From Minisyncoccia bacterium (GTDB lineage: Bacteria; Patescibacteriota; Minisyncoccia; Phycocordibacterales; UBA2100), in assembly GCA_049297775.1 (NCBI GenBank), contig JBAQUX010000025.1, positions 58,835 through 122,834 of the forward strand: a stretch of 64,000 nt of DNA. Direction: 5' to 3'. Shown in pieces: positions 17,529 to 64,000 of the stretch; the first letter of the stretch is position 1; every line of letters begins with the position of its first letter. A program made the translations under genes and the position numbers. The notes below the pieces were generated by a model. It worked only from the letters and a program-made list of their open reading frames with translations. It did no database searches and had not been told where the DNA came from.

Positions 17529-19715
17529 CTAGTGCGTAAGCACGTAATACTTTACCGCAGCGAAGTAATTAGTACCGTATCCTGCAGGCATATTCAACTT
17601 AACATCGAAGTTAGATTTAGACTTGAGTCCCGCATCGATACCTACAGTTATCCAGTGGAGTCGTGCAGCCTCTTCATTAGGGAAACTAAGGCTGTTCAAT
17701 GTCTGGTAGTCATACCAATTGAACACTTTCGGGTCGACCAAGTATTTATATGTGTCATAGAGCGCGTCTATGCTTGCTTGCACTTGTGCGAGTGTACCGA
17801 ATACGTAGTGAGACCTAAATTTGTAATCTCCCGCTGGTGCATTGCCTGGATATCGATATATGGACTGAATAGTAGTAAAACCATTTGAAGTCACAGATGC
17901 GAAATATGGAATGAGTCCAGTTAGGTCGTCAAACCTCTTGTCTGGTGAAAATATCGCCATCGCTTTCGTGCCATCAACTGAATGCGCAATAATCGGCTGA
18001 ACGGCAACGAATTTAGCATCCACAGTCGGATTTGTTGTGACGACGAGCGCTGTCAGCGCCTTAGTTCGCGGGTCATACACAGACAATTTTGGGAACTCTG
18101 TTCTCTTTACCGAGTTAAATGCTGGCAAGAAGCCGGAATCGTGGTATGTCTCGACAGTTCTCACGACCATGTCGGTAGTCAAAACCCCGGGCATACTCGT
18201 CGGCTTCGTAGATGTGCCAATATTTCCAATGGCGGCAGATTTGCCGAGCTTCACTGTGGACGTTGCTGTATTATTATTAAGAGTGAAATCTGGATTGTTC
18301 AGTCCATACGGTGCAACAAAGCACGTCGTCTTTCGCACTGGCGTACCCACATGTCCTCCAGTTGTCGGGTCATACGCATAGAAGTCCGTTGCAGCATTTG
18401 GGTTTACATAATACACAAGATCAGCGGTACTCACCATTCTATCGGCTGCAGATTTGTACCATATAGTTGGACTAGTAAGACCGCGGTTTGCACCATTTGC
18501 TATTACCACGTCAGCAACCGACCCTGTCTCGAGGGGGTTATTACAGTCATTGTAAAATGTCGGGTAGTCAGGCGTAGCCCCCACCATCGGAGTATTGAAG
18601 AAGAATGTCCCTTGTAGCGATCCGCCTCGTATATATTTAAGGTCAAGTGGCGGATCGTTCTGGACAAAGTTGTTTGAACCTCTCACAACCTGTGTAACTG
18701 CACCGCCATACGTTAATTTGTCAGTGGCTACAAACGTATCTCCATCTGACATATAATAACCATCATTTTCATATGTAGTTCCTAAATACGTCTTATTTGC
18801 AGAACCTGCTGGTATTGCTGGGTACACAGCTTCAGGAATATCCACAACAGGAAGCACAACAGTTACTGCTTGAGTCGCAGTAGCTGTACCGCCAGCTGTT
18901 TTAGTACAGGTCAATGTAAAGGTCTCGTTGTTCGTAATCATACTAGATACGACTGTCCCCGATATACCTGTTGCGAGTGTAGTCGATGCACCATTCTTAA
19001 CAGTACATGAACTCATTTGTGTTGAGCCCCATGTGAGGGTGGTTGTCTTACCCAATGCGACTGAAGTACTGGCTGCTGTAAGTGTCAGGGTTGGTACTGG
19101 AGAGGTGACGGTGATTGTAACGTTTTTTGTGATCGCTGATCCGGGTGCACCTGGTAACGGCTGACATACCAGTGAGAGCGTAGTCGTCGTGAGTGGCCCA
19201 TAGCTATATGCTGTTTGGTTAAGCGACGATAGGATCGTTGTTGCTCCATTTTTAAGTGTGCACGAGCTAGCATTAGTTGATGTCCATGTCAGTGATGTAT
19301 TAGTCCCAGACATGATTGTTGTAGGAGTTGCGGTAAATGTGGATGTTGGATTAGGTATTGCCGCATTAACAGTCACACCCACAGCTCCTGTGTCAGTCTC
19401 GTTACCATTATTCGGGTTATAACAATACACTGAATAATACGCATAGCCGGCTGCAGGCGTGTGAAATGAGTATCGATACGGGCCAGATGCATACACAGGA
19501 ATATCCAAGCCACTACCATAATACCGAGCGAGGCACACATTCTTAACCGCGTCTGGTTGCCAATTAATCTGTATCTGAGTTCCTTCCGTGACCGTAGTCC
19601 CCTGCACTGGGTACACTCCTATTGTTCCAGCTAATGAAATTCCAGGCAGCACAAGTAAAAAACTAATAAAGAAATAAATAATGCTGCGACGCGAGTAAAT
19701 ATAATTGGTAATCAT
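17529..19715 (-). CDS. Large secreted cell-surface protein with tandem Ig-like (~75-aa, Cys-containing) repeats
   Basis: N-terminal TM/signal (IIYFFISFLLVLPGISLAG). Two tandem repeats (...SLTWTSTNASSCTLKNGATT... and ...TLTWGSTQMSSCTVKNGASTT...). T/S/G-rich. Confidence 0.6.
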   Translation of the reverse strand: MITNYIYSRRSIIYFFISFLLVLPGISLAGTIGVYPVQGTTVTEGTQIQINWQPDAVKNVCLARYYGSGLDIPVYASGPYRYSFHTPAAGYAYYSVYCYNPNNGNETDTGAVGVTVNAAIPNPTSTFTATPTTIMSGTNTSLTWTSTNASSCTLKNGATTILSSLNQTAYSYGPLTTTTLSLVCQPLPGAPGSAITKNVTITVTSPVPTLTLTAASTSVALGKTTTLTWGSTQMSSCTVKNGASTTLATGISGTVVSSMITNNETFTLTCTKTAGGTATATQAVTVVLPVVDIPEAVYPAIPAGSANKTYLGTTYENDGYYMSDGDTFVATDKLTYGGAVTQVVRGSNNFVQNDPPLDLKYIRGGSLQGTFFFNTPMVGATPDYPTFYNDCNNPLETGSVADVVIANGANRGLTSPTIWYKSAADRMVSTADLVYYVNPNAATDFYAYDPTTGGHVGTPVRKTTCFVAPYGLNNPDFTLNNNTATSTVKLGKSAAIGNIGTSTKPTSMPGVLTTDMVVRTVETYHDSGFLPAFNSVKRTEFPKLSVYDPRTKALTALVVTTNPTVDAKFVAVQPIIAHSVDGTKAMAIFSPDKRFDDLTGLIPYFASVTSNGFTTIQSIYRYPGNAPAGDYKFRSHYVFGTLAQVQASIDALYDTYKYLVDPKVFNWYDYQTLNSLSFPNEEAARLHWITVGIDAGLKSKSNFDVKLNMPAGYGTNYFAAVKYYVLTH

Positions 19716-24962: not shown

Positions 24963-27900
24963 TTATTTCTTCTGCTTCTGCACGTTCAGCATACCGCTTG
25001 AATTACGCTGATAACTAGCTCCGTCCTGATTCACAGTTTCGGGCAAACTGCTGGTATTCTGCTTTGCATTATTTTGTGAGCTGTTTTGCTGCTTTTTATC
25101 ACGATCATCATTGTAAAATTTAGTTAATTGAGGGCCCATGTAGTGATCCATAACATCTAAGATTGTTGGACCGATTTCAAGGATAAGTTTCTCGCCAATT
25201 TCTTTTGTGGCACTCGTCGCACCTCTGAACATGAGATCAATTCCGAGAGTTATGCTTGTATCCTTTTTTTGCTGCTGAGTAAAAAAGTTTGGGTAATCGT
25301 AATATACTGTTTTTAGGTCGTAAAGATTTACTAATGTTTGGGCGCCTGAGTAGACAGCAATGATTGGCAAAATTGGTATTGCCTCGCCACTTCTATCAAA
25401 ATTTTTAATTGGATTACCAACACCATATGCATATGCATTAAGAGCTTGCGGATTAGTGAGGAACTTTTGAAGGGTTGCGACGTCATCGTCGTTATTATTT
25501 CCTGCTGTTAATTTTTTTTGTATTGTTGGTACGTTTTCAAATAGCCTACTACTGGATTGAATTCTGTTTAATGACTCTGTAAGAGTAGGTGTGCCTAGAG
25601 ACAACACTACCGGATCCTGACTCACAAACTGCCCCGTGCTTGGATTGTAATACCGTGCATTCAAATATGAAAGCTGCGCAGTATCATCGTAGAGTTCTCC
25701 TATGTACTTACGCTGTATATCAAATGAGGTGGCTTTGGTGTTTTGTCTGATGTCGCCGTAGGGATAATAATCAATCGTCTGCACCTCATTCGGTATGAGT
25801 GGTCCTGGTGGGACTACCGCTACGGTACGGGTTTGGGTGACTGATTGTCCACCACTGTCGGTTGCGGTGTAGGTACGCGTGTAGGTACCTTGTACCGCAG
25901 TGTTTACCGTTCCAGTTACTGTTGGAGTAACGGTGCCGTCTTCTGTGTCTGTGGCGGTAGCACCACTGTCTACATAGGTTGAACCTTGTGAGACGAGTGT
26001 TGGGTTGGTGCCACTCAGCGTGAGTACTGGTGGTGTGTTGGTTTGTGGTGCGAAGATACCCGGGATTTGGGATTGGGTCAGCCCAGTGCCGGCAAGAATC
26101 TTTACTTCATCGAGTGTTCCTTTGTGATATGACCATACACCTCCCGTGTTTGATTTGCCAAGGTAGGCAGTGGTGCCGGTGAATGAAAGGTTGGTTACTT
26201 GGCTTGGTGTTGAAGATGACTGGAGGACGTTGTCGAAGTAGAGCTCGATGGTGTTGCCACGTCTGAGACACACCATGTCGTGCCAATTATTGTCATACAC
26301 AGGAACGGTTGACGTATTGAGTGTTGTGCCACCTACGTGACAATTACCCTGCATATTTGAGTTTACATACATGTAGATATTGCTGTAGTTGTTTACATCG
26401 GTGCCCTCAAAGAAGAGCGGGCTACTTGCGTAGTTGAGTGGCCACACTGTTTTGAACCGTACTGCAACAGTAAAGTCTGAAGTTGCAGGACTATATGGCG
26501 TGAAGGCAAGATTGTCTGAGGTGCCATTCAAGTACGCTGCGGTATCTGCAGTACCTTCCTTTCCTGCTACTGATGTGTACCCATTTGAAGTAAGTGGATA
26601 CGTACTCGTGTTTATACTATTCTCTAATTTACTTGTACTTCCTTGTGCTCCCGTGTACTTCCACTGTACGAGCGGTGTAGGAATAGTGTCGGCTGGGTTT
26701 GGAGCACGAACGATTACAGTGCGTATTTTGGTGTCGGTACTTCCACCACTATCTGTAACGCTATATGTCTTAACGTACGTACCTGTCGTGGCGGTGTTCA
26801 CCGCACCTGTTGTTACGATACTTTGTGTCAGTGTGCCATCTTCTGTGTCTATTGCACTTGCTCCTTGCTCCGTGTATGTCGCATTCTGTGCAACGATTAC
26901 GGTAGACTCACCGATTACAGATACTTTCGGTGGCCTATTGTATTGCACAATGTCTGACGTGATTGCGGATGATGAACCAAGAGTATCTGTATGCAGATAG
27001 TACGGTGTTACCGTAGTCCCAACTGTTTCTATTGTGGCTACTACTGTATCCCCTGCAAATATGTGCTTTGTCTTTTTACCTGTCGAATCTTTGTTATAGA
27101 ATTTGTTTGGATATTTTGTAGTCAGTGTGCCACTTGTGTGACTCACGCGTTGCTTGCTTGTGTCATAACCGTATGTTGTTGTTACTCCACCTTTTGTAAC
27201 ACTCGCGAGCGTATTGTTGTAATTCCACACATACGTACGAACGCCATCACTCACGACATTTCCGTTATTGTCATACGTGTAGGAACTTGCACCTATGGTA
27301 GTTACTGCATGTGGGTTTGCATATCCCGTACCTGCATAGCTATATGCACCGGTATCAGACTTATTGGTGATACTACCCAGTGCATCGTACGCAAATGTAT
27401 GTGCATAGTTTGTTCCCACGAGGGCGTTTGATGCTGTCGCACTCGTTAAGCGGTATAGGTCGTCATAACCCAACGCAAGGTTCTTCTTTGTATTGGTATC
27501 AGAAGCATCACCTATTGCCGTAATGTTACCTACGGCATCATATGCGTATGAGAGATACTGGTATGCCTTTGACGTGTAGGTTGTGAATGTTCCCGTAGTG
27601 CTCCAGTCAGTCTCAGAATTTCCGGTTGTCCAGAATTTAATGCGCCAATAGTATTTGGTGCCATTAAACGTGAGCGGTGCACCTGCGTACACTATGTCGC
27701 TGGTACGCGCCCCAAACGATGTCGCAGAAAGCGATGTACCTGCGGCGCCCGAATCCCACAGTATGCCAGTCGAGAAATCTGCACTCGTTGCAACTTGCAT
27801 ACGATATTTATGTGCGACTGTTCCTGATGCACCGAGATTAAATATACCTGAGAAAACTGGCGCACCACATTTTAGTTCTACTGGATTTAACGCTCCATCT

Positions 27901-30900
27901 TGTGCGGTTAGGCACCCTGAGTACAGATAACTTTGCACAACCTGTGGCGTGGTTACTACAAAATAATCTGAGCCGTCACTCCATGGACCTTGTGTACCTC
28001 CTGTATCCCAGAATCGTATTCTCCACAGATATTTAGTGCCGTTTAACTGCAACGCAGTGCCTCCGTACGTAATGTTTGGCGTCCTGTCACCTTGGTTTAA
28101 GAGAGTTGGCAGTGCGGATTTCTGTGAATCCCACAATGGTGTTGCCCAGTTTCCACCTTCAGGGATAACTTGCACTGCGTAATGCGCACCGCTGTCTACC
28201 AGGTCGGGGTCATTAAATGTTGCCGTAAATTTTGGAGTACCGGTGGTTACTGTTGTTGGATTACTTAAGCTTTCAACTTTTAAATCTGTTGCCGTTGGCG
28301 GAATTGTTGGAAGTGAGTATGTTACTTCTAGGTATGGGTCAAAATCAGTGCCCGTATACTCTGACATTCTGAATGCATACGAATGAAATCCGGAAGTTGG
28401 AGGTACGTTGTCTTTATCGTATCCCGAGCGTAAACCAATTTTCGTCCAACCGGTAAGATTAATTGAACCGATACCAGTCGCATTAAGTGCAAAAGTTTTC
28501 CAATCTGGCGATGTAAATGTTCCATTTGCAGAATTTACACGAGCACTTAACTCAGTTGTGCCAGACTGATCAAAGTCATTCAGTACGAGCGCAGTTGGTG
28601 ACGCCTGTGTTGTAGGCACAACTACAAGATACGCATTTGGGTCCCATGCGTAGTTTACATATGTCGAGTACAGCTTTAAATTTGCACCTGTTATATTCGC
28701 TGTATCAGGAAGCGCATCTGTATTAAAGGGAACAAACAAGCGCTCGATAGTATCTGAATATTGTGCATTTGAAGCAGTTGGACCGCAACTTGACGTGCAC
28801 GGATATGCGCCGACACTTGCATCGTGTGAGTCACTCCATGAATTAGTTGGAGAATAGTTTCCTACTGCCCCATCAGCAATGTCAGAAGAGTAACTCAAGA
28901 TTGCGTCTGTAGTTACCGGGTACACTGCCTTTACTAACCATTCTTTTGGAATATGTTTTGTTAAAAGATATCCTCCGGGAACTTTTGTATACTCAACTGT
29001 TATTTGAAGCTTCTTATTTTCTGAATCCCAAATTTTTGGTGCGAATATATATACAGAATCTTCACCTTTCAGGAGCCGTGCATTTGCAGTAGTACTCATT
29101 GTGTCTTTTATAGATGTGTCACCAACCAAAAGCTCTACATCATCCTGCACGCGCAACATAAACGATACATCGTATGTTGCATCTGCATCATTTAGATTTT
29201 TTAATGCATCTGCATTTTGAATTACTACGTCTTTTGCGACGAAATTATTGTCTGCGCGAAGCACTATATCTATCCCGTCACCATACGCATTTTTCTCTCC
29301 AATTTCTCGCTCTTCCTTTTCAGTACGACTTCCCATCTTCCCGTTTTTTTCTCGTATTTGAGCACTCTTTGTTGCATTTGAATTTCTAGACTTCTCGTAT
29401 TGAGACTCAATTGCAACCGCAAGCTTTCCTACGGTAAAGGTTGCGAGTTCTACACTTATGTCTGTCTTAATATCGAGAGCATATCTTGCATCTCGAACCT
29501 TATACCCTTCTGCATCTTTGCGAATGCGTGTATCTATTGGCTGTAATTTCCCTTCAGCATCTTTGTAATGCACTGGTGCAGAAAATAATCGTGTTACTCG
29601 TGTTTCGTTTCCTTGTTCATCTCTTCCAACACGAATCGTGTAGCTATTCTCAGTTCTTGCTTTTTCAATCTCGGTGTCGTCCTTTGTATGAACTAGTGAA
29701 AGTAATTTTGGAAAATCTTCCGTATTCGAAGGCTTTTCTACAACCACTTCAGGCTTTTTTTCTACAACATCCGTAACTATTTCTTTCGGAGTGTCGGAAG
29801 TGTTTTGTTCATCCGGAATCGTAGGCGTTTTGATAGAGTCAGACACTTCCTCTGGTTCTACTGCAATCTCAGGAAGTGGACTTTGTGGTGCCGTAATAGC
29901 CTTAATTTCTTCTTGTATCTGCACTTCTTGCACCTCTGGAGAAGCAACCACTTCCTCAGCAAGCGGAACAACGAGAGACTGTTCTGCTGGCACGATTGGT
30001 ATTTCAGCAACAGGTGTAACATCCTCAGCTGGCGGATCAATTGTAGAAATATTTTTCAAGCGATACATCTCATTTGAGTCGTAGGTGTGGTATGTCCACG
30101 TATTGTTGGCGAGTTGCTTCAAGGTAAACTGACCGTGCGGACCATAATCATAATTTGAGACCACATCAACCCATGTACCACCCGATTCTTTTCGTTGGAT
30201 TTTCTCAATCCTTCCCGTCTGGTTGTAGGTATATTTTACTTGTGCACTGTCTGGCGTAGTAATCGTAGATATATCTCCTGTTCGAGTGTAGTCAAAGTTT
30301 GTCGTGAATGTTTCTCCTCCGATAACTCTTTGCTCTTCTGCGACGTCACCACGAACCGTGTATGTATATGTAGACGTTGTTGTACCGCGCGTAGCTGTAC
30401 TTAACCTGCCTTTGCCATAGGTTCCTATATCATACGTATAGCTTGCTTCTATTCCTGAAACATTTGTTGCGTCTTCTGAAGTTAGTCTATCGAGTGCATC
30501 GTACGCATAGTTTACGACTGTTCCTGACGGTTGAGTTTCTTGAGTTTTATTGCCCTGTGCATCGTACACAAAATTCCAATTGCCAAAAGTACTGTCTGCA
30601 GGTGCATGCAAGTCTTCTGCACTTGTTCTGCGGTTTGCTTTATCATACGTGAAGGCACGAACATTTCCTCCGGCATCTTGTATAGTACTCAGATTATTTT
30701 TTGTATCGTATGTGTATGTGGTGACATTTGGTGTTGAGCCAACAAATTCTGTCACTTTGTATACACTGCCACGCGCATCTGTTTCATACATTTTTTGTTT
30801 ACCTTTGGCATCAACTATCGTCTTTTTCCAGTCCGTGTAGCTTGTTGCTGTCGTTCCAAGTGCATTTACTGAGCTCACGACTCTATTTAACGCATCGTAT

Positions 30901-33900
30901 ACAAATGAAGTTGCGAGTGCGGAGTTTGTACTTGGGCTCGTTTTACTCCCGCCAATACTGGCGTATGGCAATGATTGTGAGGTCACGGTACCGTCTCTCC
31001 CGTATGTTGCGTCAGCTACAGAATACTTTCCTCCTTCGTTACTCACGCGCTTTTGAATTACCCTGCCAAGTCCATCGGCATACGTGTACGAATCCTGTGA
31101 AAGGGATCCCGTAATGTAGGTCCGTTCATACACACTGTTTGCGTTACGCGTATCCGTATAGGTGAGTGTTTTTGAAGTTATCAGTGATGCCGGTGCACTA
31201 TTGTCACTTGCTCGCACTGATACTACACGCCCCAAGGCATCGTAGGTGGTTTCAACGGAATATGTATTTGCATCAGTTACCAGTTTTGGCTTACCTATGA
31301 TTTGATTGTACTGATACGTAGTTGCGTGCGTCAGCGGATTTGTACTGGTTGCCGGATACAAGTTTTGCGCATCGTACGTAAGCGTTGTTGTGTAGTTTCT
31401 TGGGTTGATAATCGAACTTACCAGTCCATACGAGTTGAACGTGCGCTGTGTTGAAGCATACGTGGCTCCTGAGAGGAGTTGTTCGGTTTTCGTTTCGTTT
31501 CCGATGGTCACTGTGCCTAGTGGCTGAGCATCATAGTAACGACGGGCCTCTGATTGAATGACTCCTAACTGATCTTTAAGAAGCTGGCGTGATACTTTGT
31601 TCAAAATTTTGCCAGCGGTATCTGTTGCATACGTGTACTCTGTTACGCGCTTATCTGTACCAGTATCAACATACGTGCCATCTGGCGAGGCGTTAACTTC
31701 TCCCCACTCTGACTCAGAAAAAATGTTACCGTTTGTGGTGTTATATGCACGAGTTTTTACTGTGTCTTTGTGCGATGCATCACCCTCATATATGAGCGTA
31801 GCAACTTGCGTGTTTTGTACAAAAAACTGATTCCCTGCTACTGCAGCAATCCAGCGAAGTACTTCCAAAGAATACAGAGACCCATTGCTTGCATACCGTG
31901 CGATTCTGTACGGCTTACCAATTTTTGAAGGGTGGTCTAACACTTCACCATTTGTAGTATCTGTAGTGTTTCCTTGGTGGTAATACGTTTTTGTTTTGTT
32001 ACCTGCAGAATCTGTAACGGTGATTATGTTAAACCCAGCGAATTGCTTATCATTATATGCATTAAAGTACTGCGATATACCTTCATAAAAATATGTTTTT
32101 GTATCAAGGTATCCAGAGCCATCGCCAATAGTAATAGTATCTACCGTAGTTACAGGATATGGTGAGCCAGTATTAACTAGATTTCCACTTCCATCTTTAT
32201 AGGCAAGCGAACTTTTGTACGTATACGACACACTCCCACCTTGCGGAAGTGTTACTGAGGTAAGCAAGTCTGCTTTTTTACCTGTATTCAAATATACTTT
32301 ATTTGTCAAAACACCACCTGGAAATATTGCACCGACCAAATCTGGCAGTGAGTCGCCGTTTATATCTAAGATTCTCCAACCCCCATCTTTTTGCCCAGTT
32401 ACTCCGTTCCAAGATGAAAACACCACATCTGAGGGAAGATTGTACGTACCCGTATTGAAAGTTGTACCGGTATTAGTGAATAATGATTGAACGTTTGTTC
32501 CACCAGCATTAGTTGCTGATTCAATAATATCTGGCAAACCATCTGCGTTTATATCAGCAATTCGTGAGCCGACTCTTTCTGACCCGTCTATACTAAAGGG
32601 ATAAGCTCCAGGTACGGTAATTGCAGATGTCAGAAAACCTTTAGCTGAGTTAAGTTTGAGTGCTTTTACCGTCACATTGTTTACGACAGACCACTCTATT
32701 GAGTCCAGTAGGCCGTCACCGTTAAAATCTCCAAACCGTCCATCATTGGTGTACGGCGCGCCATCTGTCCAGGTGACTGAATCTTTCCAGCCGAGAGTTA
32801 CTCCATTACCAAAATACGTAGACATAATATCTGCGCGACCGTCTCCATTCCAATCTGCAAATGATACATTGTTAGGGCCAGAATATAGACTACTAAATCC
32901 AAAACCGTCTGGAATGCTATACGCAGAATTCCATACATAATCTGTAGGACCTTTCACAAAAACTTTTTTATACTGTTTATTCTCAGACGGCGTCTGATTG
33001 TAATCATCATCATCGTGGGCCTCGACAAGGTCGTCCATTCCATCACCATTTACATCTCCGACGCGCAGGCCGAAGTCGTTGTGATTCAGCGTGTCCTCAG
33101 CTAAAAAGCAAGCATCCGTAGGAACAAGTGCTGTGGTAATTGTATTCCATGCAGTACCAGTATTAAGCGCAGTTTGCTTGTTGTAGCATTGAGCTGGAGT
33201 TGGCCCGCTTGCTTTAATTATATCTGGCAACCCATCCCCATTTACCTCAGCAAAGCGAACACCATTATCAGGTGTAAATGCTGTATCAATGAGAGGAATT
33301 GAAATTGACCAATTTGGTGCCACTTGCCATCCTACTGTCGGCTGTTGGTAGGCAAGTTGCGTTGCAGGTAGTGTGACAACATTACCTTGTTCATCTCGTC
33401 CACTCTCAACCACAGTACTCAAAACGGAACGAACACCATTTACACCGGTGCCATAGCCGAGGTCATATTTTCTAACCCAGGTGCCACTTTTCTTTGCGAT
33501 TACTTGTTTTATACGATAGTTTGACGTAACTGCAAAAGCGGTTTTGTATGATGGTACTGTGTCTACACGTGCTTCACGAATAAAATTTACTTCAAAAATA
33601 CCATCTGTGCTTCCTGAACCTGTATAGAAAATAGAATCTGGATATATTTGTCCAGCATTTTTAAAATATGTATATCGCGCAAAGTTATTATTTGTATCTC
33701 TCACTTCGTCAAGCATCCACTGATACACATTTGCAGTATTCGCGATGTCATCTTGTCGCGATGCGGCAGTAGAACCTAATTTGAATACGGTCCCGTCCTT
33801 TCCTGTAATAGTCCACGCTGTGCCTGTATACGCATATGTATTGTACGCACCAGAGTCGTATTTAGCTCTATAGATAGCAGGTGAGCCTGCAGTAATCAGA

Positions 33901-34286
33901 ACCAGCTCTCCATCAAGAGAAGAAGTAAAGGTGTTTTGTGTATAGAGATTATTTACGCCCTCTTTATTTAGTCTTGAGATTGCAGGGATACCCACTGACC
34001 ATCCGTATCCGTATAAGCCAGTATTATCACTTGTATTACTATTGTATGAAAGTGAGAGCGACGGTTCGATACCATTTCTTCCTGGAGGAGTTACGAACGG
34101 AATGTCATATGTCGCAGACCCAGTATTTCCTTCTGGGCGAATTTGAATTGTTTTAGATTTTGTTTCAAGAAGACTTACTGGAACGTTGTATCCGTTATCC
34201 TCTGCTCGAGCTACGTTTGGGAATGCGCACGTCTGTAAAAATATGGTGAGAACAACAATTACAGCGACAGCTCTTTTTGTGCGCAT
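24963..34286 (-). CDS. Giant (3107 aa) secreted RHS/YD-repeat polymorphic toxin with a TcB/SpvB-like N-terminus
   Basis: Signal peptide. SpvB/TcdB-N-like region (IEPSLSLSYNSNTSDNTGLYGYGWSVGIPAISRL). Multiple FG-GAP/VCBS-like repeats (DVNGDGMDDLV, DWNGDGRADI, DFNGDGLLDS, DINADGLPDII, DINGDSLPDLV). First YD-repeat block (YTYD..GN, YDALGR...). Pro/Glu-rich linker. Two fn3-like modules (KYLWRIRFWDTGG / KYYWRIKFWTTGN). Second YD block ending YYLHTDTLGSS. Two Ig-like modules (TYxxTDSGG). A LamG/ConA-like module (DNNWHDMVCLRRGNTIELYFDNVLQ...LDEVKIL). A terminal RHS core end (YYPYGDIRQ...RYYNPSTGQFVSQDPV + AYAYGVGNPIKNFDRSGE). A unique ~150-aa C-terminal domain. Confidence 0.9.
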   Translation of the reverse strand: MRTKRAVAVIVVLTIFLQTCAFPNVARAEDNGYNVPVSLLETKSKTIQIRPEGNTGSATYDIPFVTPPGRNGIEPSLSLSYNSNTSDNTGLYGYGWSVGIPAISRLNKEGVNNLYTQNTFTSSLDGELVLITAGSPAIYRAKYDSGAYNTYAYTGTAWTITGKDGTVFKLGSTAASRQDDIANTANVYQWMLDEVRDTNNNFARYTYFKNAGQIYPDSIFYTGSGSTDGIFEVNFIREARVDTVPSYKTAFAVTSNYRIKQVIAKKSGTWVRKYDLGYGTGVNGVRSVLSTVVESGRDEQGNVVTLPATQLAYQQPTVGWQVAPNWSISIPLIDTAFTPDNGVRFAEVNGDGLPDIIKASGPTPAQCYNKQTALNTGTAWNTITTALVPTDACFLAEDTLNHNDFGLRVGDVNGDGMDDLVEAHDDDDYNQTPSENKQYKKVFVKGPTDYVWNSAYSIPDGFGFSSLYSGPNNVSFADWNGDGRADIMSTYFGNGVTLGWKDSVTWTDGAPYTNDGRFGDFNGDGLLDSIEWSVVNNVTVKALKLNSAKGFLTSAITVPGAYPFSIDGSERVGSRIADINADGLPDIIESATNAGGTNVQSLFTNTGTTFNTGTYNLPSDVVFSSWNGVTGQKDGGWRILDINGDSLPDLVGAIFPGGVLTNKVYLNTGKKADLLTSVTLPQGGSVSYTYKSSLAYKDGSGNLVNTGSPYPVTTVDTITIGDGSGYLDTKTYFYEGISQYFNAYNDKQFAGFNIITVTDSAGNKTKTYYHQGNTTDTTNGEVLDHPSKIGKPYRIARYASNGSLYSLEVLRWIAAVAGNQFFVQNTQVATLIYEGDASHKDTVKTRAYNTTNGNIFSESEWGEVNASPDGTYVDTGTDKRVTEYTYATDTAGKILNKVSRQLLKDQLGVIQSEARRYYDAQPLGTVTIGNETKTEQLLSGATYASTQRTFNSYGLVSSIINPRNYTTTLTYDAQNLYPATSTNPLTHATTYQYNQIIGKPKLVTDANTYSVETTYDALGRVVSVRASDNSAPASLITSKTLTYTDTRNANSVYERTYITGSLSQDSYTYADGLGRVIQKRVSNEGGKYSVADATYGRDGTVTSQSLPYASIGGSKTSPSTNSALATSFVYDALNRVVSSVNALGTTATSYTDWKKTIVDAKGKQKMYETDARGSVYKVTEFVGSTPNVTTYTYDTKNNLSTIQDAGGNVRAFTYDKANRRTSAEDLHAPADSTFGNWNFVYDAQGNKTQETQPSGTVVNYAYDALDRLTSEDATNVSGIEASYTYDIGTYGKGRLSTATRGTTTSTYTYTVRGDVAEEQRVIGGETFTTNFDYTRTGDISTITTPDSAQVKYTYNQTGRIEKIQRKESGGTWVDVVSNYDYGPHGQFTLKQLANNTWTYHTYDSNEMYRLKNISTIDPPAEDVTPVAEIPIVPAEQSLVVPLAEEVVASPEVQEVQIQEEIKAITAPQSPLPEIAVEPEEVSDSIKTPTIPDEQNTSDTPKEIVTDVVEKKPEVVVEKPSNTEDFPKLLSLVHTKDDTEIEKARTENSYTIRVGRDEQGNETRVTRLFSAPVHYKDAEGKLQPIDTRIRKDAEGYKVRDARYALDIKTDISVELATFTVGKLAVAIESQYEKSRNSNATKSAQIREKNGKMGSRTEKEEREIGEKNAYGDGIDIVLRADNNFVAKDVVIQNADALKNLNDADATYDVSFMLRVQDDVELLVGDTSIKDTMSTTANARLLKGEDSVYIFAPKIWDSENKKLQITVEYTKVPGGYLLTKHIPKEWLVKAVYPVTTDAILSYSSDIADGAVGNYSPTNSWSDSHDASVGAYPCTSSCGPTASNAQYSDTIERLFVPFNTDALPDTANITGANLKLYSTYVNYAWDPNAYLVVVPTTQASPTALVLNDFDQSGTTELSARVNSANGTFTSPDWKTFALNATGIGSINLTGWTKIGLRSGYDKDNVPPTSGFHSYAFRMSEYTGTDFDPYLEVTYSLPTIPPTATDLKVESLSNPTTVTTGTPKFTATFNDPDLVDSGAHYAVQVIPEGGNWATPLWDSQKSALPTLLNQGDRTPNITYGGTALQLNGTKYLWRIRFWDTGGTQGPWSDGSDYFVVTTPQVVQSYLYSGCLTAQDGALNPVELKCGAPVFSGIFNLGASGTVAHKYRMQVATSADFSTGILWDSGAAGTSLSATSFGARTSDIVYAGAPLTFNGTKYYWRIKFWTTGNSETDWSTTGTFTTYTSKAYQYLSYAYDAVGNITAIGDASDTNTKKNLALGYDDLYRLTSATASNALVGTNYAHTFAYDALGSITNKSDTGAYSYAGTGYANPHAVTTIGASSYTYDNNGNVVSDGVRTYVWNYNNTLASVTKGGVTTTYGYDTSKQRVSHTSGTLTTKYPNKFYNKDSTGKKTKHIFAGDTVVATIETVGTTVTPYYLHTDTLGSSSAITSDIVQYNRPPKVSVIGESTVIVAQNATYTEQGASAIDTEDGTLTQSIVTTGAVNTATTGTYVKTYSVTDSGGSTDTKIRTVIVRAPNPADTIPTPLVQWKYTGAQGSTSKLENSINTSTYPLTSNGYTSVAGKEGTADTAAYLNGTSDNLAFTPYSPATSDFTVAVRFKTVWPLNYASSPLFFEGTDVNNYSNIYMYVNSNMQGNCHVGGTTLNTSTVPVYDNNWHDMVCLRRGNTIELYFDNVLQSSSTPSQVTNLSFTGTTAYLGKSNTGGVWSYHKGTLDEVKILAGTGLTQSQIPGIFAPQTNTPPVLTLSGTNPTLVSQGSTYVDSGATATDTEDGTVTPTVTGTVNTAVQGTYTRTYTATDSGGQSVTQTRTVAVVPPGPLIPNEVQTIDYYPYGDIRQNTKATSFDIQRKYIGELYDDTAQLSYLNARYYNPSTGQFVSQDPVVLSLGTPTLTESLNRIQSSSRLFENVPTIQKKLTAGNNNDDDVATLQKFLTNPQALNAYAYGVGNPIKNFDRSGEAIPILPIIAVYSGAQTLVNLYDLKTVYYDYPNFFTQQQKKDTSITLGIDLMFRGATSATKEIGEKLILEIGPTILDVMDHYMGPQLTKFYNDDRDKKQQNSSQNNAKQNTSSLPETVNQDGASYQRNSSGMLNVQKQKK

Positions 34287-45089: not shown

Positions 45090-47423
45090 TTACTTAGTAA
45101 CTATCACCATCGTACCGGTGGGCACGATATTCATGAGCTCATTTATTTTTGCATTTTCCACCCGCACACAGCCATTACTCACCTCTCCTGTCATACCGCC
45201 ATCTGGAGAACCGTGTATGGCAATTTCTGGATGCCACTGTCCCGCAAGCACAAGCATGCCTCCTACTTGTCCGCCGTATTCCTTTGGAAATGGTTGCCCT
45301 TTATTTTGAAGCCACCATTGTGCATCACGCTTTCCGACGAGTTGGTATGTTCCTGTAGGTGTAACGTGGTCGCCAATATATCTACGTTCATTTACTCCGC
45401 CCTTACCTATCGCAATATCAAAATTTTGTTCGAGCGCACCCGTTTTTCTATTATAAATCCACAAGTGTCGTGCACTCTTATCAATCACAATCATTTTTTC
45501 CGGACCTTTTTCTGCCTCTGCATATTTTTCTAACACCGTCGGCACGTTGACGCGCCATAAACTAAGCACAAAGTTTTTTGTTGCCTTTGCCACCGCAGAC
45601 GGAAATGATTGGTCAGGGAGCTTGGGCGATTTTGCTCTGTCTTTTGTGGTAAACGGCCACTGGTTAGAAAAGAGTGAATTTTTAAGTACGTCCCACGTCG
45701 TTGGGTTATACATCTCTGGCTTCATCACGTAATAGTCTTCGCCACGTATCACTTGCTTCGTCATAAAGCCAAGACGCACATGCAAATCGAGAACCTTCGT
45801 GGCGATTCTGTTGAGGTCTACTTCAGTTAAATCGGGCACGCCGTCTTTGTTTAAATCAACACCCTCTTTCATGTACTTCACCACGTCACTAATGATACGT
45901 CGCTCTTCTCCGGCGATACCACGAATAAACGCGATGTGGTTACCCGAGGCAAGTGCCTGGTGTACGGCAAGTGCACGCTCTTCAAAACTACGCGCCGGTT
46001 GTGCGCGTGCGTGCTCAGCAATAAATGCTCGTGATGATTCCATGCTGAGGTCGTCAGTTACGGCGACACCTTGAAGCCCAAGACCTGTTTTACTTTTAGG
46101 ACCAGTGAGTGTGTGGATGGCACGACGCGAATATACAGTCGGAATTTTTGAGTCTCCCCACAAGTTGTTGCCGGTGACCGCAGTCATAATGCCCCCAATC
46201 GGTGTTGGGTCGTTTGCGCGTGCGAGCAATGTGTTTATCTGCGCATCAAGTGTTGCCATCAAGCGCTGATTCGCTGCAATGATGACTTGTGTGCGTCCTT
46301 TTTGTGTAGGCACCGCAAGAATTTGTTTTTCATATTCAATATTTTTTGCACGCAATCGTTCTATCTGTGCGCGAAGCTCTGTGGTGCGTCGCTCTATGTA
46401 GTCATTACTCGCATCATTGTTTATCACATCACGGTATGGCACCAGCATTCCTGAGTCTCGTCGGATTACCACATTCGCCTGTTCGCGATGCGGATCTCCT
46501 TCAGCGAGGTTTGTTCCTACGAAGTGCTTGGGAACCACCACGACAGAAGTAGTATCTTTAAACCCGCGAATGTAGGCACCGGCAAGTGCAGAGACCACGT
46601 CGGGGCGCGAGCCATACGCTCTATCATCACGCTCTGCAGGACGAGAGCCATCAATATTTTCTACGATGTCGAGGTTCGGTCCAAAGACCAGGTTAATACC
46701 AGCATGCTCACAAATTTTTGCGATGGTTTTGCCATAGCCCTGCATTTCGTCCAAGAACTTTTGTCTCGCGCCATCTGTAGTGAGTCTGCTATATACGCGT
46801 CCGAGCCATTCCTGACTCGGCAGTGGATGGTCTGCTACAGCGCGTACTTTACCCGCATCACCATTATGTCTGCGTACGTAAAATTCATATTCTTTTTGTC
46901 GTTCCACCAACATGCGTTCAGGTATGCCAAATTTTCGCAGGTCTTCTTGCGTAAGTTTAAAGTGATTAATAAGTCCACCCTCAATATCAGCAGAAATAAG
47001 GACCGGATGTTTTGCTTCAAGGCGAATTTTTCTAATATTTTCTGTGGCGTCAGCGAGTGAGGTCAGTTCACTCCGGTATAAGTGTATGAGTCCCAGATTC
47101 GCACTTGAATTTCTGAGCGCAAATCCCACAGAGGGAAAACGGTTTGCCATACCTTGTGTATACCGCCCCGAATAGAGAGACGAGCCAAGTGCCAGACGCA
47201 GTTTTTCGGTAACCGGAAGTTCAGCAACAGTAAATGCATGGTTGCGAGCAATATTTTCTGTGTTCACTCCGCGTTGCCCCACTTCCATAGCACCTAAGCC
47301 TCCCGCGAAGGCAAGCGCAGTGATACCACTCCGGCGCAAGTTACGCTTAAACGGCGTGATTGGTTGCTTTGGTTGTGGCTCGTTTTTTGGCACACCTTCA
47401 GACATGTGTCTATCGTAGCACAT
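45090..47423 (-). CDS. Bifunctional peptidoglycan enzyme: glycoside hydrolase family 3 (NagZ-like beta-N-acetylhexosaminidase) N-terminal region fused to a C-terminal L,D-transpeptidase (YkuD) domain
   Basis: GH3 motifs ISADIEGGLINHF and VVPKHFVGTNLAEGDPH. C-terminal LDT motif HGSPDGGMTGEVSNGCVRVEN (His/Cys catalytic pair). Confidence 0.7.
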   Translation of the reverse strand: MCYDRHMSEGVPKNEPQPKQPITPFKRNLRRSGITALAFAGGLGAMEVGQRGVNTENIARNHAFTVAELPVTEKLRLALGSSLYSGRYTQGMANRFPSVGFALRNSSANLGLIHLYRSELTSLADATENIRKIRLEAKHPVLISADIEGGLINHFKLTQEDLRKFGIPERMLVERQKEYEFYVRRHNGDAGKVRAVADHPLPSQEWLGRVYSRLTTDGARQKFLDEMQGYGKTIAKICEHAGINLVFGPNLDIVENIDGSRPAERDDRAYGSRPDVVSALAGAYIRGFKDTTSVVVVPKHFVGTNLAEGDPHREQANVVIRRDSGMLVPYRDVINNDASNDYIERRTTELRAQIERLRAKNIEYEKQILAVPTQKGRTQVIIAANQRLMATLDAQINTLLARANDPTPIGGIMTAVTGNNLWGDSKIPTVYSRRAIHTLTGPKSKTGLGLQGVAVTDDLSMESSRAFIAEHARAQPARSFEERALAVHQALASGNHIAFIRGIAGEERRIISDVVKYMKEGVDLNKDGVPDLTEVDLNRIATKVLDLHVRLGFMTKQVIRGEDYYVMKPEMYNPTTWDVLKNSLFSNQWPFTTKDRAKSPKLPDQSFPSAVAKATKNFVLSLWRVNVPTVLEKYAEAEKGPEKMIVIDKSARHLWIYNRKTGALEQNFDIAIGKGGVNERRYIGDHVTPTGTYQLVGKRDAQWWLQNKGQPFPKEYGGQVGGMLVLAGQWHPEIAIHGSPDGGMTGEVSNGCVRVENAKINELMNIVPTGTMVIVTK

Positions 47424-60885: not shown

Positions 60886-61917
60886 CTACTTTGTAGCAAA
60901 CTTTCCATCACCATTCTTAACAAATGTTTCTGTATCTTGGAGATTCACGAGAATAGTGCCGTCTTTTACATAGCGCTCACGTTTTACGCGGTCAATTATT
61001 TCTTTGCGAGACAACGGTCCTTCGCGGTGCAAAATATCTTTGATAACTTCTTTTACCACACCCTTTGAGTATCCCCATTCTGAGAGCGCATAGAGTCCAC
61101 GTCCCACGAGAATAAATCGTCCATCTTTTATGAGTTCATTGTGACACGTTGCTTCGTGTGCTTTTCGTCCAAAAAGTTCTGAGATAGAACGTGCGACTTC
61201 TGCAAAGTGCATTGGTGAGCCGTGACGCTTGAGCGAAAGATATGCCATGTCACGCATGTTTTTTACACGGACTCCTGGTGCATCAACGCGACCCCATTCG
61301 CCGAGTGGGTTTCTGCCGATTTTCTTTGAGAGTGAAAGCCAGCGCTTTGCGATTTCTTCTTCTTGGTATTTATCGTTTAAGTGTGTGAGATCTGCAAGAA
61401 AACGCTTCATAAGCTCTGCCTCAGCTACCAATTCTGTGTCATTGAGGTTGCGGTAGAGATTGCGAAGTGCTGTATGTACAGACTCTGCAACGCCATGGTC
61501 TGCATGCCAGCGGTGTACGAACTCTGGGTCCTCCTTCATGCGGTTGAATTCGTTTCCAACGACGAGCAAAAAGTGTATGTGGTTTTGGATACTTTCGTTC
61601 TTTGAAATAGCTTCGAGGAGCTCTTGTTCTGGCACAATACCGCCTAAATCAATGATTACACCTGATATTTCCTTAAAAACGGCCTGAGACTCCTTGTAGT
61701 CCGCAGACTCACGAATTGCCTCAATTGCTCGGTTTTCAATTTGTCGGACACGCTCACGAGTGATGGTGTACTTACTACCTATAGATTCGAGTGTCTCTCG
61801 CTTTACCGCTGTGCCCAAGCCATAGCGCCCTGAAAGAACGTCGCGCTCACGATTTGGAAGCACTCCGAGGAGCTTTTTGGTTACTTGTTTAGGTTTGAAG
61901 GTAATGACGAATGACAT
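60886..61917 (-). CDS. Atypical DNA-binding protein: N-terminal sigma-70 region-4-like HTH and a C-terminal HARE-HTH-like (RNA polymerase delta RpoE-like) domain. Not a canonical sigma factor, because regions 1-3 are absent.
   Basis: N-terminus LPNRERDVLSGRYGLGTAVKRETLESIGSKYTITRERVRQIENRAIEAI. C-terminus SPMHFAEVARSI...ATCHNELIKDGRFILVGRGLYALSEWG. Confidence 0.45.
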   Translation of the reverse strand: MSFVITFKPKQVTKKLLGVLPNRERDVLSGRYGLGTAVKRETLESIGSKYTITRERVRQIENRAIEAIRESADYKESQAVFKEISGVIIDLGGIVPEQELLEAISKNESIQNHIHFLLVVGNEFNRMKEDPEFVHRWHADHGVAESVHTALRNLYRNLNDTELVAEAELMKRFLADLTHLNDKYQEEEIAKRWLSLSKKIGRNPLGEWGRVDAPGVRVKNMRDMAYLSLKRHGSPMHFAEVARSISELFGRKAHEATCHNELIKDGRFILVGRGLYALSEWGYSKGVVKEVIKDILHREGPLSRKEIIDRVKRERYVKDGTILVNLQDTETFVKNGDGKFATK

Positions 61918-62058: not shown

Positions 62059-64000
62059 CTAAAGTGGAGCGACAACGATATTCACTAATCGCTGTGGGAC
62101 AATGATAATTTTTACGATGCGCTGGTCTGCAGTCCATTTTTCTACTGCGCGTTGTGCTAATTGCTCTATCACCTCCTTACTCTCAGCAATGGCACACGTA
62201 AACTGACCGCGCAATTTACCATTTACCTGTACTGCCATGATGACTGAACTTGCTATGAGCTTTTTTTCTTGCCACTTTGGCCACTTCTCAAGGTGTATGG
62301 ATTGTTTGTGTCCACGGATATGCCACAACTCCTCAGCGCAGTGCGGTGCAAGTGGTGCAAGAAGTTTTATAAGTGTGTCGTACTGTGCAGAAGTTATTCC
62401 CTGCTTTTCTGCATGATTGATGAAGGTCATGAGCGCTGCAATCGCAGTATTAAATTTCATCTCTTGCATGTCCTCACTACACTTCTTTATCATTTTGTGT
62501 AACTCACGCTCAGTATCTTCAGAAACTTTTGTAGAGAGAGAAAATTGCAATTTCCACACTCGCTCCAAAAAGCGACGGACACCGGCGATACTTTCCTGAC
62601 TCCAAGGGTAACTTCCCACTTCGTTGTACGGCCCAATAAAGGCAAGGTACATACGCACTGTGTCTGCACCGAGGCGCTTTACTACATCATCTGGGTCAAT
62701 AACATTCCCTTTTGACTTACTCATCTTCTGACCATCTGGACCCATAATGAGCCCGCGATTCATGCGTCGCACGTATGGTTCTGGATGAGAAACCATTTTC
62801 ATATCATAGAGTGCCTTGTGCCAAAAACGTGAGTACAGCACGTGCATCGTGGTGTGCTCTGCGCCTCCTGAATACACATCAACGGGGAGCCACTGTGCAA
62901 GAGCCTTTGCTGATGCAAATTGTTGCTTGTTTTTCGGATCAGCGTATCGGAGGTAATACCACGATGAATCCACAAAGGTATCGAGTGTGTCTGTCTCACG
63001 CTCTGCTTTACCTTTACACACAGGACACGTTGTTTTTACAAATCGCGCAGATTTTGCAAGCGGTGATTTACCATCACCATCTGGTAAGTAGTCGGTAATG
63101 CGTGGCAATTCTACAGGAAGTTGCTTTTCAGGTACTGGTTGTGGACCACATTTTGCACAGTGCACCATTGGTATTGGTACGCCCCAATAGCGCTGGCGAC
63201 TTACAATCCAATCACGAAGACGATATGTCTTTTTTACAACACCGTACAATTCGGTAAACAACTTTTTAGCTTCTTCTGTTGTTATGCCGTCATGTGCTCC
63301 TGAATTAACGAGTCGCCCTTCTCCGGTATATATTGTTGGACCTTTCTCAAAAGCTTTTTTCGTTGCATCCTTTTCCATGAGTGTAAGGAATGCGAACAAC
63401 TCGTCCCATGTCTTCCATGTATTTCTGTGCTGGCCTGATTCTTCATCTGCAACAGGTACCGACGCGCCGCTTTGGAGTTCAAAGTAAAGATTTTGAAAAC
63501 GGGCGCGAATATTTGTCTGCTTTCGCTGGTGATAGAACTCGATAAATGAGAAGCCTTTCACATCGCGGATGAATTTTGCATCAGTGTATCCAGCCTCTTC
63601 TTGTATCTCTCGCTTTCCAGCGGTAACGACATCTTCGCCAGGCTCAATGCCCCCAGAGACCATCGTACGCACGCCACTGTGGTCGGTCCATTCTTGTGCC
63701 AGATACTCGTCCTTTTCCCAGTGCTTCACAATACACATGACGGCATCTCGTTCCTTAAATGCACCATCCTCGCGTACTTTCTCATTGCCGGTACTTGCAG
63801 TAGATACTTTTGCTACCACTTGCGTTACTGGGATGCCAAACTTTTTGGCAAACTCATTATCGCGCTCATCGTGTGCTGGAACTGCCATAACTGCGCCCGT
63901 TCCGTATTGTGCTAACACATAATCTGCAATGTATACCGGAATGTTTTTTCCTGTTGCTGGATTCTGTGCTTGCACACCAAGAAGTGGAAGACCTGTCTTT
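62059..64000 (-). CDS. leuS: Leucyl-tRNA synthetase, partial (N-terminal part lies outside the window), carrying an in-frame Nudix-hydrolase domain insertion after the CP1 editing domain
   Basis: End of the editing domain: GTGAVMAVPAHDERDNEFA. Downstream LeuRS core: RLRDWIVSRQRYWGVPIPMV, KMSKSKGN. Between them ~165 aa with a canonical Nudix box GGIEPGEDVVTAGKREIQEEAGY (Gx5Ex7REUxEExGU). The track's start at 63975 is a GTG inside the gene; the frame stays open to the window edge. Confidence 0.85.
   Translation of the reverse strand, partial: KTGLPLLGVQAQNPATGKNIPVYIADYVLAQYGTGAVMAVPAHDERDNEFAKKFGIPVTQVVAKVSTASTGNEKVREDGAFKERDAVMCIVKHWEKDEYLAQEWTDHSGVRTMVSGGIEPGEDVVTAGKREIQEEAGYTDAKFIRDVKGFSFIEFYHQRKQTNIRARFQNLYFELQSGASVPVADEESGQHRNTWKTWDELFAFLTLMEKDATKKAFEKGPTIYTGEGRLVNSGAHDGITTEEAKKLFTELYGVVKKTYRLRDWIVSRQRYWGVPIPMVHCAKCGPQPVPEKQLPVELPRITDYLPDGDGKSPLAKSARFVKTTCPVCKGKAERETDTLDTFVDSSWYYLRYADPKNKQQFASAKALAQWLPVDVYSGGAEHTTMHVLYSRFWHKALYDMKMVSHPEPYVRRMNRGLIMGPDGQKMSKSKGNVIDPDDVVKRLGADTVRMYLAFIGPYNEVGSYPWSQESIAGVRRFLERVWKLQFSLSTKVSEDTERELHKMIKKCSEDMQEMKFNTAIAALMTFINHAEKQGITSAQYDTLIKLLAPLAPHCAEELWHIRGHKQSIHLEKWPKWQEKKLIASSVIMAVQVNGKLRGQFTCAIAESKEVIEQLAQRAVEKWTADQRIVKIIIVPQRLVNIVVAPL

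Follow-up and report, generated by a model that had tools for sequence, protein, structure and literature searches.

A stretch of 64,000 nucleotides from a Minisyncoccia bacterium (positions 58,835 to 122,834 of contig JBAQUX010000025.1, assembly GCA_049297775.1; hereafter the window) ends within a gene for a bacterial-type leucyl-tRNA synthetase (LeuRS), and it is inside the CP1 editing domain of this enzyme that a complete Nudix hydrolase domain is found. It is highly probable that this is a real, conserved and catalytically competent Nudix lodged within CP1. The component parts of the arrangement are already known; their nesting, and the recurrence of that nesting, are undescribed in the literature searched. 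Searches for LeuRS or other aminoacyl-tRNA synthetases (aaRSs) with a Nudix domain or from the candidate phyla radiation (CPR)/Patescibacteria, and for domain insertions in aaRSs, did not find the LeuRS-Nudix architecture described. In a survey of domain insertions the LeuRS editing domain was never a host across 213 insertion events (PMC13114784).

The gene lies on the minus strand at 62059..64000 and is read as one unbroken frame from the edge of the window at 64000 to the stop codon at 62059..62061, encoding the C-terminal 646 amino acids of a bacterial-type LeuRS. The window edge clips leuS, leaving the 5' 485 codons outside, a truncation on which the initial annotation of this DNA was silent. 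The whole enzyme is represented by a full-length protein of 1131 amino acids (P0081), which is 100% identical over the window portion and carries the public name 'alpha/beta fold hydrolase [Minisyncoccia bacterium]'. The bacterial LeuRS model TIGR00396 (leuS_bact), with a cut-off of 548.4, scores 920.8 bits with P0081 and 514.3 bits with the window fragment, which falls below the cut-off because its N-terminal 485 residues are missing. Pfam matches in the fragment comprise the LeuRS editing domain, the class I catalytic domain and the anticodon-binding domain, and in P0081 the editing domain (PF13603) reaches 173 bits. Both class I motifs are present, KMSKS in the window and HVGH at P0081 residues 49-52, beyond it. 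Conservation, here and below, is taken from an alignment of 113 full-length orthologues with residues in P0081 numbering: the editing motifs TTRPDT (428-433) and HDERD (528-532) are invariant, including the editing residues D529 and D532, and HVGH and KMSKS are intact. When the AlphaFold2 (AF2) model of the full-length protein (pLDDT 91, pTM 0.80) is superposed on solved structures of bacterial LeuRS, the target-normalised TM scores are 0.72-0.84. The neighbours of leuS, as seen on a second, independent contig, include purK/E/C/B/M, ychF, a gene for a sigma-70-r4/HARE-HTH protein, yceG, folK, folP and ribosomal protein genes, which is an ordinary housekeeping setting. Judged on these features, this gene encodes the functional bacterial-type LeuRS of the organism, with no sign of a degraded paralogue. 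Its elements in the window are as follows.

62059..64000, minus strand: C-terminal 646 codons and stop codon of the LeuRS gene (continuous frame, TIGR00396, AF2)
63808..63999, minus strand: CP1 editing domain before the insert, including GTGAVMAVPAHDERD at 63859..63903 with the editing Asp (PF13603, 92 bits)
63331..63807, minus strand: insert, made up of an N-terminal linker strand, the Nudix domain and a C-terminal helical tail (alignment gap between Thermus thermophilus LeuRS 364 and 377)
63388..63750, minus strand: core of the Nudix fold, fragment residues 84-204 (PF00293, Foldseek)
63586..63654, minus strand: Nudix box GGIEPGEDVVTAGKREIQEEAGY, the catalytic and metal-binding helix, fragment G116-Y138 (exact fit to GX5EX7REUXEEXGU)
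63505..63522, minus strand: K-x-x-N(R) hairpin, family-specific positions outside the box
63415..63444, minus strand: E-x3-H-x3-W segment, family-specific positions outside the box
63226..63330, minus strand: CP1 editing domain after the insert (YTGEGRLVNSG...), leading back to the catalytic core (PF13603, 13 bits)
62530..63225, minus strand: second half of the Rossmann catalytic core (PF00133, 89.7 bits)
63181..63222, minus strand: RLRDWIVSRQRYWG, a catalytic-core motif
63145..63162 and 63010..63027, minus strand: Cys motifs HCAKCG and CPVCKG
62731..62742, minus strand: GPDG, replacing the leucine-specific domain (LSD) (motif search and T. thermophilus alignment)
62713..62727, minus strand: KMSKS
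62062..62529, minus strand: anticodon-binding and C-terminal domains (PF08264, 78.5 bits; T. thermophilus LeuRS 637-876)

The position of the insert follows from a phmmer comparison with solved structures, in which fragment residues 2-64 correspond to T. thermophilus LeuRS 303-364 and residues 224-420 to 377-579, such that about 159 amino acids (63331..63807, fragment residues 65-223) stand in place of a 12-residue loop of the Thermus enzyme. The editing profile PF13603 is matched on both sides, at profile positions 81-141 before the insert (92 bits) and at positions 155-181 of 185 after it (13 bits, weak when taken alone). The T. thermophilus editing domain we take to span roughly residues 224-417 and, with T. 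thermophilus 364 and 377 at its borders and PF13603 on either side, the insert is therefore nested inside the CP1 editing domain. CP1 is itself inserted in the Rossmann fold, and the Nudix occupies a surface hairpin of CP1, making an insertion within an insertion. The initial annotation had drawn the insertion at 63318..63813, an extent that is good to about 15 nucleotides when compared with the alignment, and had set it between the end of CP1 and the catalytic core, in the slot of the LSD. Neither placement can be kept, since the editing profile continues after the insert and the true LSD slot is found just upstream of KMSKS, shrunk to GPDG, with the insert lying about 200 residues upstream of it. 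The T. thermophilus alignment, the PF13603 matches on both flanks and the spacing of the motifs together rule out an LSD-slot position. The concern that the Nudix segment might be a separate open reading frame, joined by an overlooked frameshift or stop, falls with the continuous frame: inspection of the frame and of the G+C content of the region revealed no stop codon, frameshift or composition break across the insert.

The box of the insert is an exact fit to the Nudix pattern and represents the sole match to a relaxed form of that pattern across the six frames of the 64 kb window. The whole fragment scores 36.1 bits with PF00293 (E 7.8e-9) and the segment taken on its own 39.3 bits (E 8e-10), the gathering score of this profile being 21.1. 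Prediction by AF2 of fragment residues 58-230, from a 64-sequence alignment, returns the alpha/beta/alpha sandwich of a Nudix enzyme (pLDDT 93.3, pTM 0.88), and in Foldseek this model matches solved Nudix enzymes with a probability of 1.0 and target-normalised TM scores of up to 0.77. The canonical box and Nudix-fold flanks reported in the initial annotation are thus confirmed, the profile score and the continuous frame also bearing out its claim of a Nudix embedded in frame in a LeuRS, which is not a textbook architecture.

The Nudix domain is fast-evolving, with a mean pairwise identity among the orthologues of 0.43, compared with 0.65 for CP1 and 0.74 for the catalytic core. Within the Nudix box, G601, E616, E620 and G622 are conserved in 100% of the orthologues, E619 in 97%, R615 in 95% and E607 in 92%. 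Outside the box, N648, E672 and W680 are 99-100% conserved and H676 90%, with R569 likewise fixed, and these family-specific positions are kept too in the stand-alone and extra copies of the domain that are described below. With the catalytic residues frozen while the rest of the domain drifts, we infer a working enzyme. An alternative is that the insert is a non-catalytic module, a Nudix fold with a structural, tRNA-binding or nucleotide-sensing role that perhaps compensates for the lost LSD. This has some appeal in that the second copy of the tandem Nudix pairs found before CP1 in some relatives often has a degenerate box. It is difficult to reconcile with box Glu and Arg residues that are held at 92-100% despite a mean domain identity of 43%, and with a strict box in 65 of the 90 canonical-site copies of a wider set, such that a non-catalytic module is considered improbable.

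The loss of the LSD, which most bacterial LeuRS possess, bears on the same alternative. In E. coli LeuRS the LSD comprises A571-M617, 47 amino acids just upstream of KMSKS, and it aids tRNA binding and discrimination (PMC3643597). In the window enzyme the alignment leaps from T. thermophilus 579 to 637 over fragment residues 420-425, where the sequence reads GPDG-Q-KMSKS (62713..62742), and T. thermophilus residues 580-636 have no counterpart. The same short, LSD-less spacing is seen in 160 of the 161 Nudix-bearing LeuRS tested, which is what the idea of a compensating module draws upon. Against it, the LeuRS of Mycoplasma mobile functions with only GKDG in the LSD slot, showing the LSD to be dispensable and no replacement domain to be needed (PMC3643597). 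This minimal enzyme (PDB 3ZIU) shares with the window LeuRS a Gly-x-Asp-Gly before KMSKS, GKDG there and GPDG here. It has also lost CP1, in contrast to the window LeuRS, which keeps CP1 and has it enlarged by enzymatic domains. In comparison with the canonical bacterial enzymes of E. coli, T. thermophilus and Neisseria gonorrhoeae (4AQ7, 1H3N/2BTE, 7NU3), P0081 has the same core, CP1 motifs, KMSKS and anticodon-binding and C-terminal domains, but adds the 159-residue Nudix in CP1 and a 180-residue alpha/beta hydrolase and is without the LSD, giving a length of 1131 amino acids as opposed to the roughly 860-880 of a canonical bacterial LeuRS.

The architecture is by no means peculiar to one genome. 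The initial annotation had proposed a survey of LeuRS homologues in CPR genomes, and there the same insert does recur: almost all of the best 120 LeuRS relatives contain PF00293, under labels that include Kaiserbacteria, Adlerbacteria, Parcubacteria, Minisyncoccia and Patescibacteria. A set of 181 full-length LeuRS of 923-1360 amino acids, drawn from Patescibacteria and some Bacilli metagenome-assembled genomes (MAGs), carries the Nudix insert in every case (181/181), the Nudix itself having been the means by which the set was assembled. A scan of one genome per species, which required an intact Nudix box and whose listed loci are therefore a biased sample, gave PF00293 scores of 52-66 bits in LeuRS. 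Among the loci listed the nested architecture occurs in Parcubacteria, Paceibacterota, Berkelbacteria, Taylorbacteria and contigs labelled Saccharibacteria, and also in uncultured Bacilli, Erysipelotrichaceae and Bacillales MAGs (L022, L026, L027, L028, L030, L033, L038), cases that may reflect transfer, shared ancestry or mislabelling. One contig labelled Candidatus Woesearchaeota archaeon (L007) encodes a bacterial-type LeuRS with both an alpha/beta hydrolase and a Nudix, and its archaeal label could be the result of mis-binning or of inter-domain transfer.

This distribution also disposes of the notion of an artefact, be it a chimeric assembly, two genes fused by a frameshift, or a pseudogene. 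The sole caveat in its favour is that the source is a MAG. The frame is continuous and the composition even, two independent contigs encode the identical protein, and the AF2 models are confident. The insert also recurs at the same residue-level position in more than 180 full-length orthologues, which derive from many different assemblies and sources. The chance of an artefact is accordingly judged negligible.

When the insert alone was used for an exhaustive HMMER scan at E <= 1e-3, only 240 clusters matched among 1.84 billion cluster representatives. About two-thirds of the 148 matches listed besides the query are LeuRS or LeuRS fragments, and the rest are proteins of about 150-190 amino acids. 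Stand-alone homologues of the Nudix are found in Parcubacteria and in DPANN archaea, and in the loci examined none has leuS beside it. Two of them sit among genes for small phosphohydrolases: on a Parcubacteria contig (L014 669..3433) genes for a CYTH protein, a hypothetical protein, a HAD protein and an LMW phosphatase (LMW-PTP) precede the stand-alone Nudix, and on an Aenigmarchaeota contig (L036 5989..7419) a HAD gene comes after the gene for a tandem Nudix-Nudix protein. A specific Nudix-HAD partnership was considered and rejected, as the HADs beside the stand-alone homologues show no specific relationship to the HAD that is embedded in LeuRS and described below, the link being at the level of the superfamily only.

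The Nudix is not the only enzyme domain to have found its way into these synthetases. P0081 itself contains, beyond the window, an alpha/beta serine hydrolase of about 180 amino acids at the strand entering CP1 (residues 236-415, L001 about 8706-9245; PF06821, 39 bits). It has the motifs HG and GHSLG, the consensus showing a conserved Asp and His as well, and such a domain is present in 83 of the 181 full-length Nudix-bearing LeuRS. Two Nudix domains are found in 8 of the 181 and three in a further 2, the multi-Nudix enzymes including P0201, P0202, P0205, P0210, P0222, L005 and L008. The extra copies are located before CP1, sometimes in tandem, or in the C-terminal half. In the tandem pairs before CP1 the catalytic box is intact in the first copy and often degenerate in the second, an organisation reminiscent of an active/inactive pseudo-dimer. 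By best-hit analysis the extra copies mostly form position-specific orthologous groups, while some of those before CP1 are closest to the canonical-site copies of other proteins, which points to several insertion events.

Domains of other families occupy further loops. A complete RdgB/Ham1 non-canonical NTP pyrophosphatase sits between the catalytic core and the anticodon-binding domain (L020 amino acids 1010-1194; P0223), the LeuRS-embedded domain scoring 175.5 bits with TIGR00042 for a cut-off of 145.35, and a Ham1-like domain is found before CP1 in P0318 and L009. A HAD_2 phosphatase appears at two sites, in the C-terminal half (P0329, P0214) and between CP1 and the Nudix (P0204, P0326), and DUF559/Vsr-like domains are found before CP1 (P0189, P0232, P0304). 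After the first Cys motif a 130-residue module resembles ASCH, at 19.9 bits and thus below the gathering cut-off (P0178, P0223, P0235, P0263, P0271, L020). Inserts without a family match are present in P0287, P0303, P0239 and P0345, that of P0345 occupying the LSD slot. Taken together, the domain assignments indicate repeated acquisition of other small hydrolase domains by this LSD-less clade of LeuRS, the different loops affected numbering at least four or five. An enzyme domain has been joined to a class Ia synthetase elsewhere, in the family NF040702 ('isoleucine--tRNA ligase, N-acetyltransferase domain-containing'), where the unrelated partner is a GNAT and not a Nudix.

What, then, would a Nudix do within a synthetase? 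The explanation preferred here is that the domain would be an active Mg2+-dependent hydrolase that cleaves the pyrophosphate bond of a nucleoside-diphosphate-X compound, for which its fold and profile neighbours offer dinucleoside polyphosphates such as diadenosine tetraphosphate (Ap4A), non-canonical NTPs and RNA 5'-end caps as candidate substrates. It would act largely apart from the cycle of leucylation and editing, the LeuRS of these genome-reduced bacteria providing a permissive, essential and constitutively made scaffold that would carry nucleotide house-cleaning enzymes as passengers. This mechanism as a whole is put forward with about even confidence, and it is favoured by the unrelated hydrolases that sit in other LeuRS loops and by stand-alone Nudix homologues that lie apart from leuS, one of them in a run of genes for small phosphohydrolases. 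Nudix, RdgB/Ham1 and HAD are classic sanitation families, with no link to leucylation that we know of. The house-cleaning hydrolases (Nudix, RdgB/Ham1 ITPase and HAD nucleotidases) are exactly the families inserted in this LeuRS clade, with the difference that they are normally separate small proteins and are here nested in the loops of an essential translation enzyme. The intact catalytic motifs of the inserted domains suggest a similar small-molecule sanitation chemistry, and the inserted copies would, on this basis, perform house-cleaning.

The choice of substrate rests on the nearest relatives of the domain. The top structural matches in Foldseek are an uncharacterised Enterococcus faecalis Nudix, E. 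coli RppH, NudC, DIPP1 and the Aquifex Ap4A hydrolase, at 12-21% identity, and the best solved relatives by family profile are the lupin Ap4A hydrolase (E 1.7e-7), the Aquifex Ap4A hydrolase, the AvrM14 decapping effector and Dcp2, with a generic MutT/nudix protein (2AZW) ranking level with the Ap4A hydrolases, RppH and Dcp2. The domain is thus weakly placed nearest to the Ap4A-hydrolase/RppH/Dcp2 branch, that of dinucleoside polyphosphates and RNA caps. The initial annotation had listed Ap4A among possible substrates, and hydrolysis of Ap4A or another dinucleotide stays a live candidate because Ap4A hydrolases and RppH are among the domain's top matches by profile and by fold. With the Ap4A hydrolase, RppH (NudH) and Dcp2 enzymes (1F3Y, 3I7U, 4S2Y, 5J3T) the LeuRS Nudix shares the alpha/beta/alpha fold and a complete box, but it is embedded and not free-standing and has positions of its own in R569, K-x-x-N and E-x3-H-x3-W. 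Assignment to a known Nudix subfamily was rejected, as no NCBIfam cut-off was reached and the fold and profile neighbours are merely suggestive. A match to Tad4 (E 0.016) was weak and was set aside.

Several observations weigh against the passenger explanation and its candidate substrates. None of the NCBIfam Nudix equivalog models was passed, RppH (NF001938) giving 26.7 bits for a cut-off of 116 and NudE (NF008736, an ADP-ribose/ADP-compound pyrophosphatase) 27.9 bits for a cut-off of 169. The likeness to Ap4A hydrolases and RppH, at 12-21% identity and E about 1e-7, is weak, and most of it comes from the Nudix box. Lastly, among the 148 matches listed, this Nudix subfamily is embedded solely in LeuRS, and at no fewer than three sites, an exclusivity that is not predicted by a pure passenger model and that therefore hints at a LeuRS-specific role.

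One such role would see the Nudix functionally coupled to the synthetase, either clearing the Ap4A or Ap3A formed from Leu-AMP and ATP or ADP, or acting on an RNA bound by LeuRS whose 5' end bears, for instance, a triphosphate or a dinucleotide cap, with the location in CP1 placing the Nudix beside the source of its substrate. Many aaRSs produce Ap4A as a side reaction, and in the literature searched for Ap4A and LeuRS nothing was found on how much of it LeuRS makes. Coupling would fit with the Ap4A hydrolases, RppH, Dcp2 and AvrM14 being among the best solved relatives, and with a subfamily that, among the matches listed, is embedded within LeuRS only, where it occupies several independent sites and can number up to three copies. 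On the other hand, the RdgB/Ham1 ITPase, HAD, alpha/beta hydrolase and DUF559 domains in other loops are without an obvious link to leucylation, the stand-alone Nudix homologues are unlinked to leuS, no Nudix subfamily model was passed, and intragenic duplication can account for the extra copies within one gene and hence for part of the exclusivity. A coupled Nudix is for these reasons a possible but doubtful account.

A different form of coupling, raised in the initial annotation, is that the Nudix could be a proofreading site built into the enzyme, where mis-activated aminoacyl-adenylates would be hydrolysed in pre-transfer editing. Nudix enzymes cleave nucleoside diphosphate-X compounds, whereas an aminoacyl-AMP is joined by an acyl-phosphate bond and lacks a pyrophosphate. 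The bond chemistry required thus lies outside that which defines Nudix enzymes, making such hydrolysis chemically unlikely. The classical post-transfer editing site, with its TTRPDT and HDxRD motifs, is moreover fully conserved in the 113 orthologues, and other unrelated hydrolases sit in the same enzyme. What speaks for adenylate proofreading is that the Nudix is located physically within the editing domain and that tRNA-independent pre-transfer editing is increased in LeuRS without the LSD (PMC3643597). Overall the idea is very improbable, and the wider suggestion of a built-in proofreading or signalling function finds no support in relatives whose other loops hold hydrolases as unrelated as RdgB/Ham1, HAD, alpha/beta hydrolase and DUF559.

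A bolder possibility treats the patescibacterial LeuRS as a multi-enzyme machine, in which the nested Nudix and the alpha/beta hydrolase, RdgB/Ham1 and HAD domains are integrated with the charging of tRNA-Leu. Such a machine might clear Ap4A or adenylylated by-products at source or process the 5' end of LeuRS-bound RNA. It is regarded as a little more doubtful even than a coupled Nudix alone, and it stays alive because, as an embedded domain among the matches listed, the Nudix subfamily is associated with LeuRS alone, at several independent insertion sites.

Other parts of the window contain features of separate interest. Directly downstream of leuS, at 60886..61917 on the minus strand, is a gene for a 343-residue protein with an N-terminal sigma-70 region 4 and a HARE-HTH domain, and this gene adjoins leuS on the second contig too. 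At 24963..34286 on the minus strand an open reading frame of 3107 amino acids contains SpvB, FG-GAP, RHS-repeat and bacterial Ig-like domains, a content that suggests a giant surface or polymorphic-toxin protein of the Rhs/Tc-toxin-like kind in a bacterium with a small genome. A 777-residue fusion of a glycoside hydrolase family 3 N-terminal domain and a YkuD L,D-transpeptidase, an unusual combination of cell-wall enzymes, is encoded at 45090..47423 on the minus strand. The 728-residue open reading frame at 17529..19715 on the minus strand has no Pfam match at E <= 1e-4, and ARAGORN found no tRNA or tmRNA genes in the 64 kb window.

The acquisition of new domains by aaRSs is usually discussed as a trait of complex eukaryotes. 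Here it is bacteria with the smallest genomes that enlarge an essential synthetase by 10-50% with predicted working enzyme domains, and do so inside the editing domain. The identity of the enzyme is easily missed, as the database names 'alpha/beta fold hydrolase' and 'class I tRNA ligase family protein' mask what is the cell's LeuRS. If the inserted domains are passengers, they would represent a route by which reduced genomes tie nucleotide house-cleaning to an indispensable gene, and the loops of LeuRS would stand out as places where the insertion of domains is naturally tolerated. If the Nudix is instead coupled to LeuRS, it would constitute a new kind of synthetase-linked quality control, and a multi-enzyme LeuRS, if true, would add a previously unknown layer of quality control or signalling within an aaRS.

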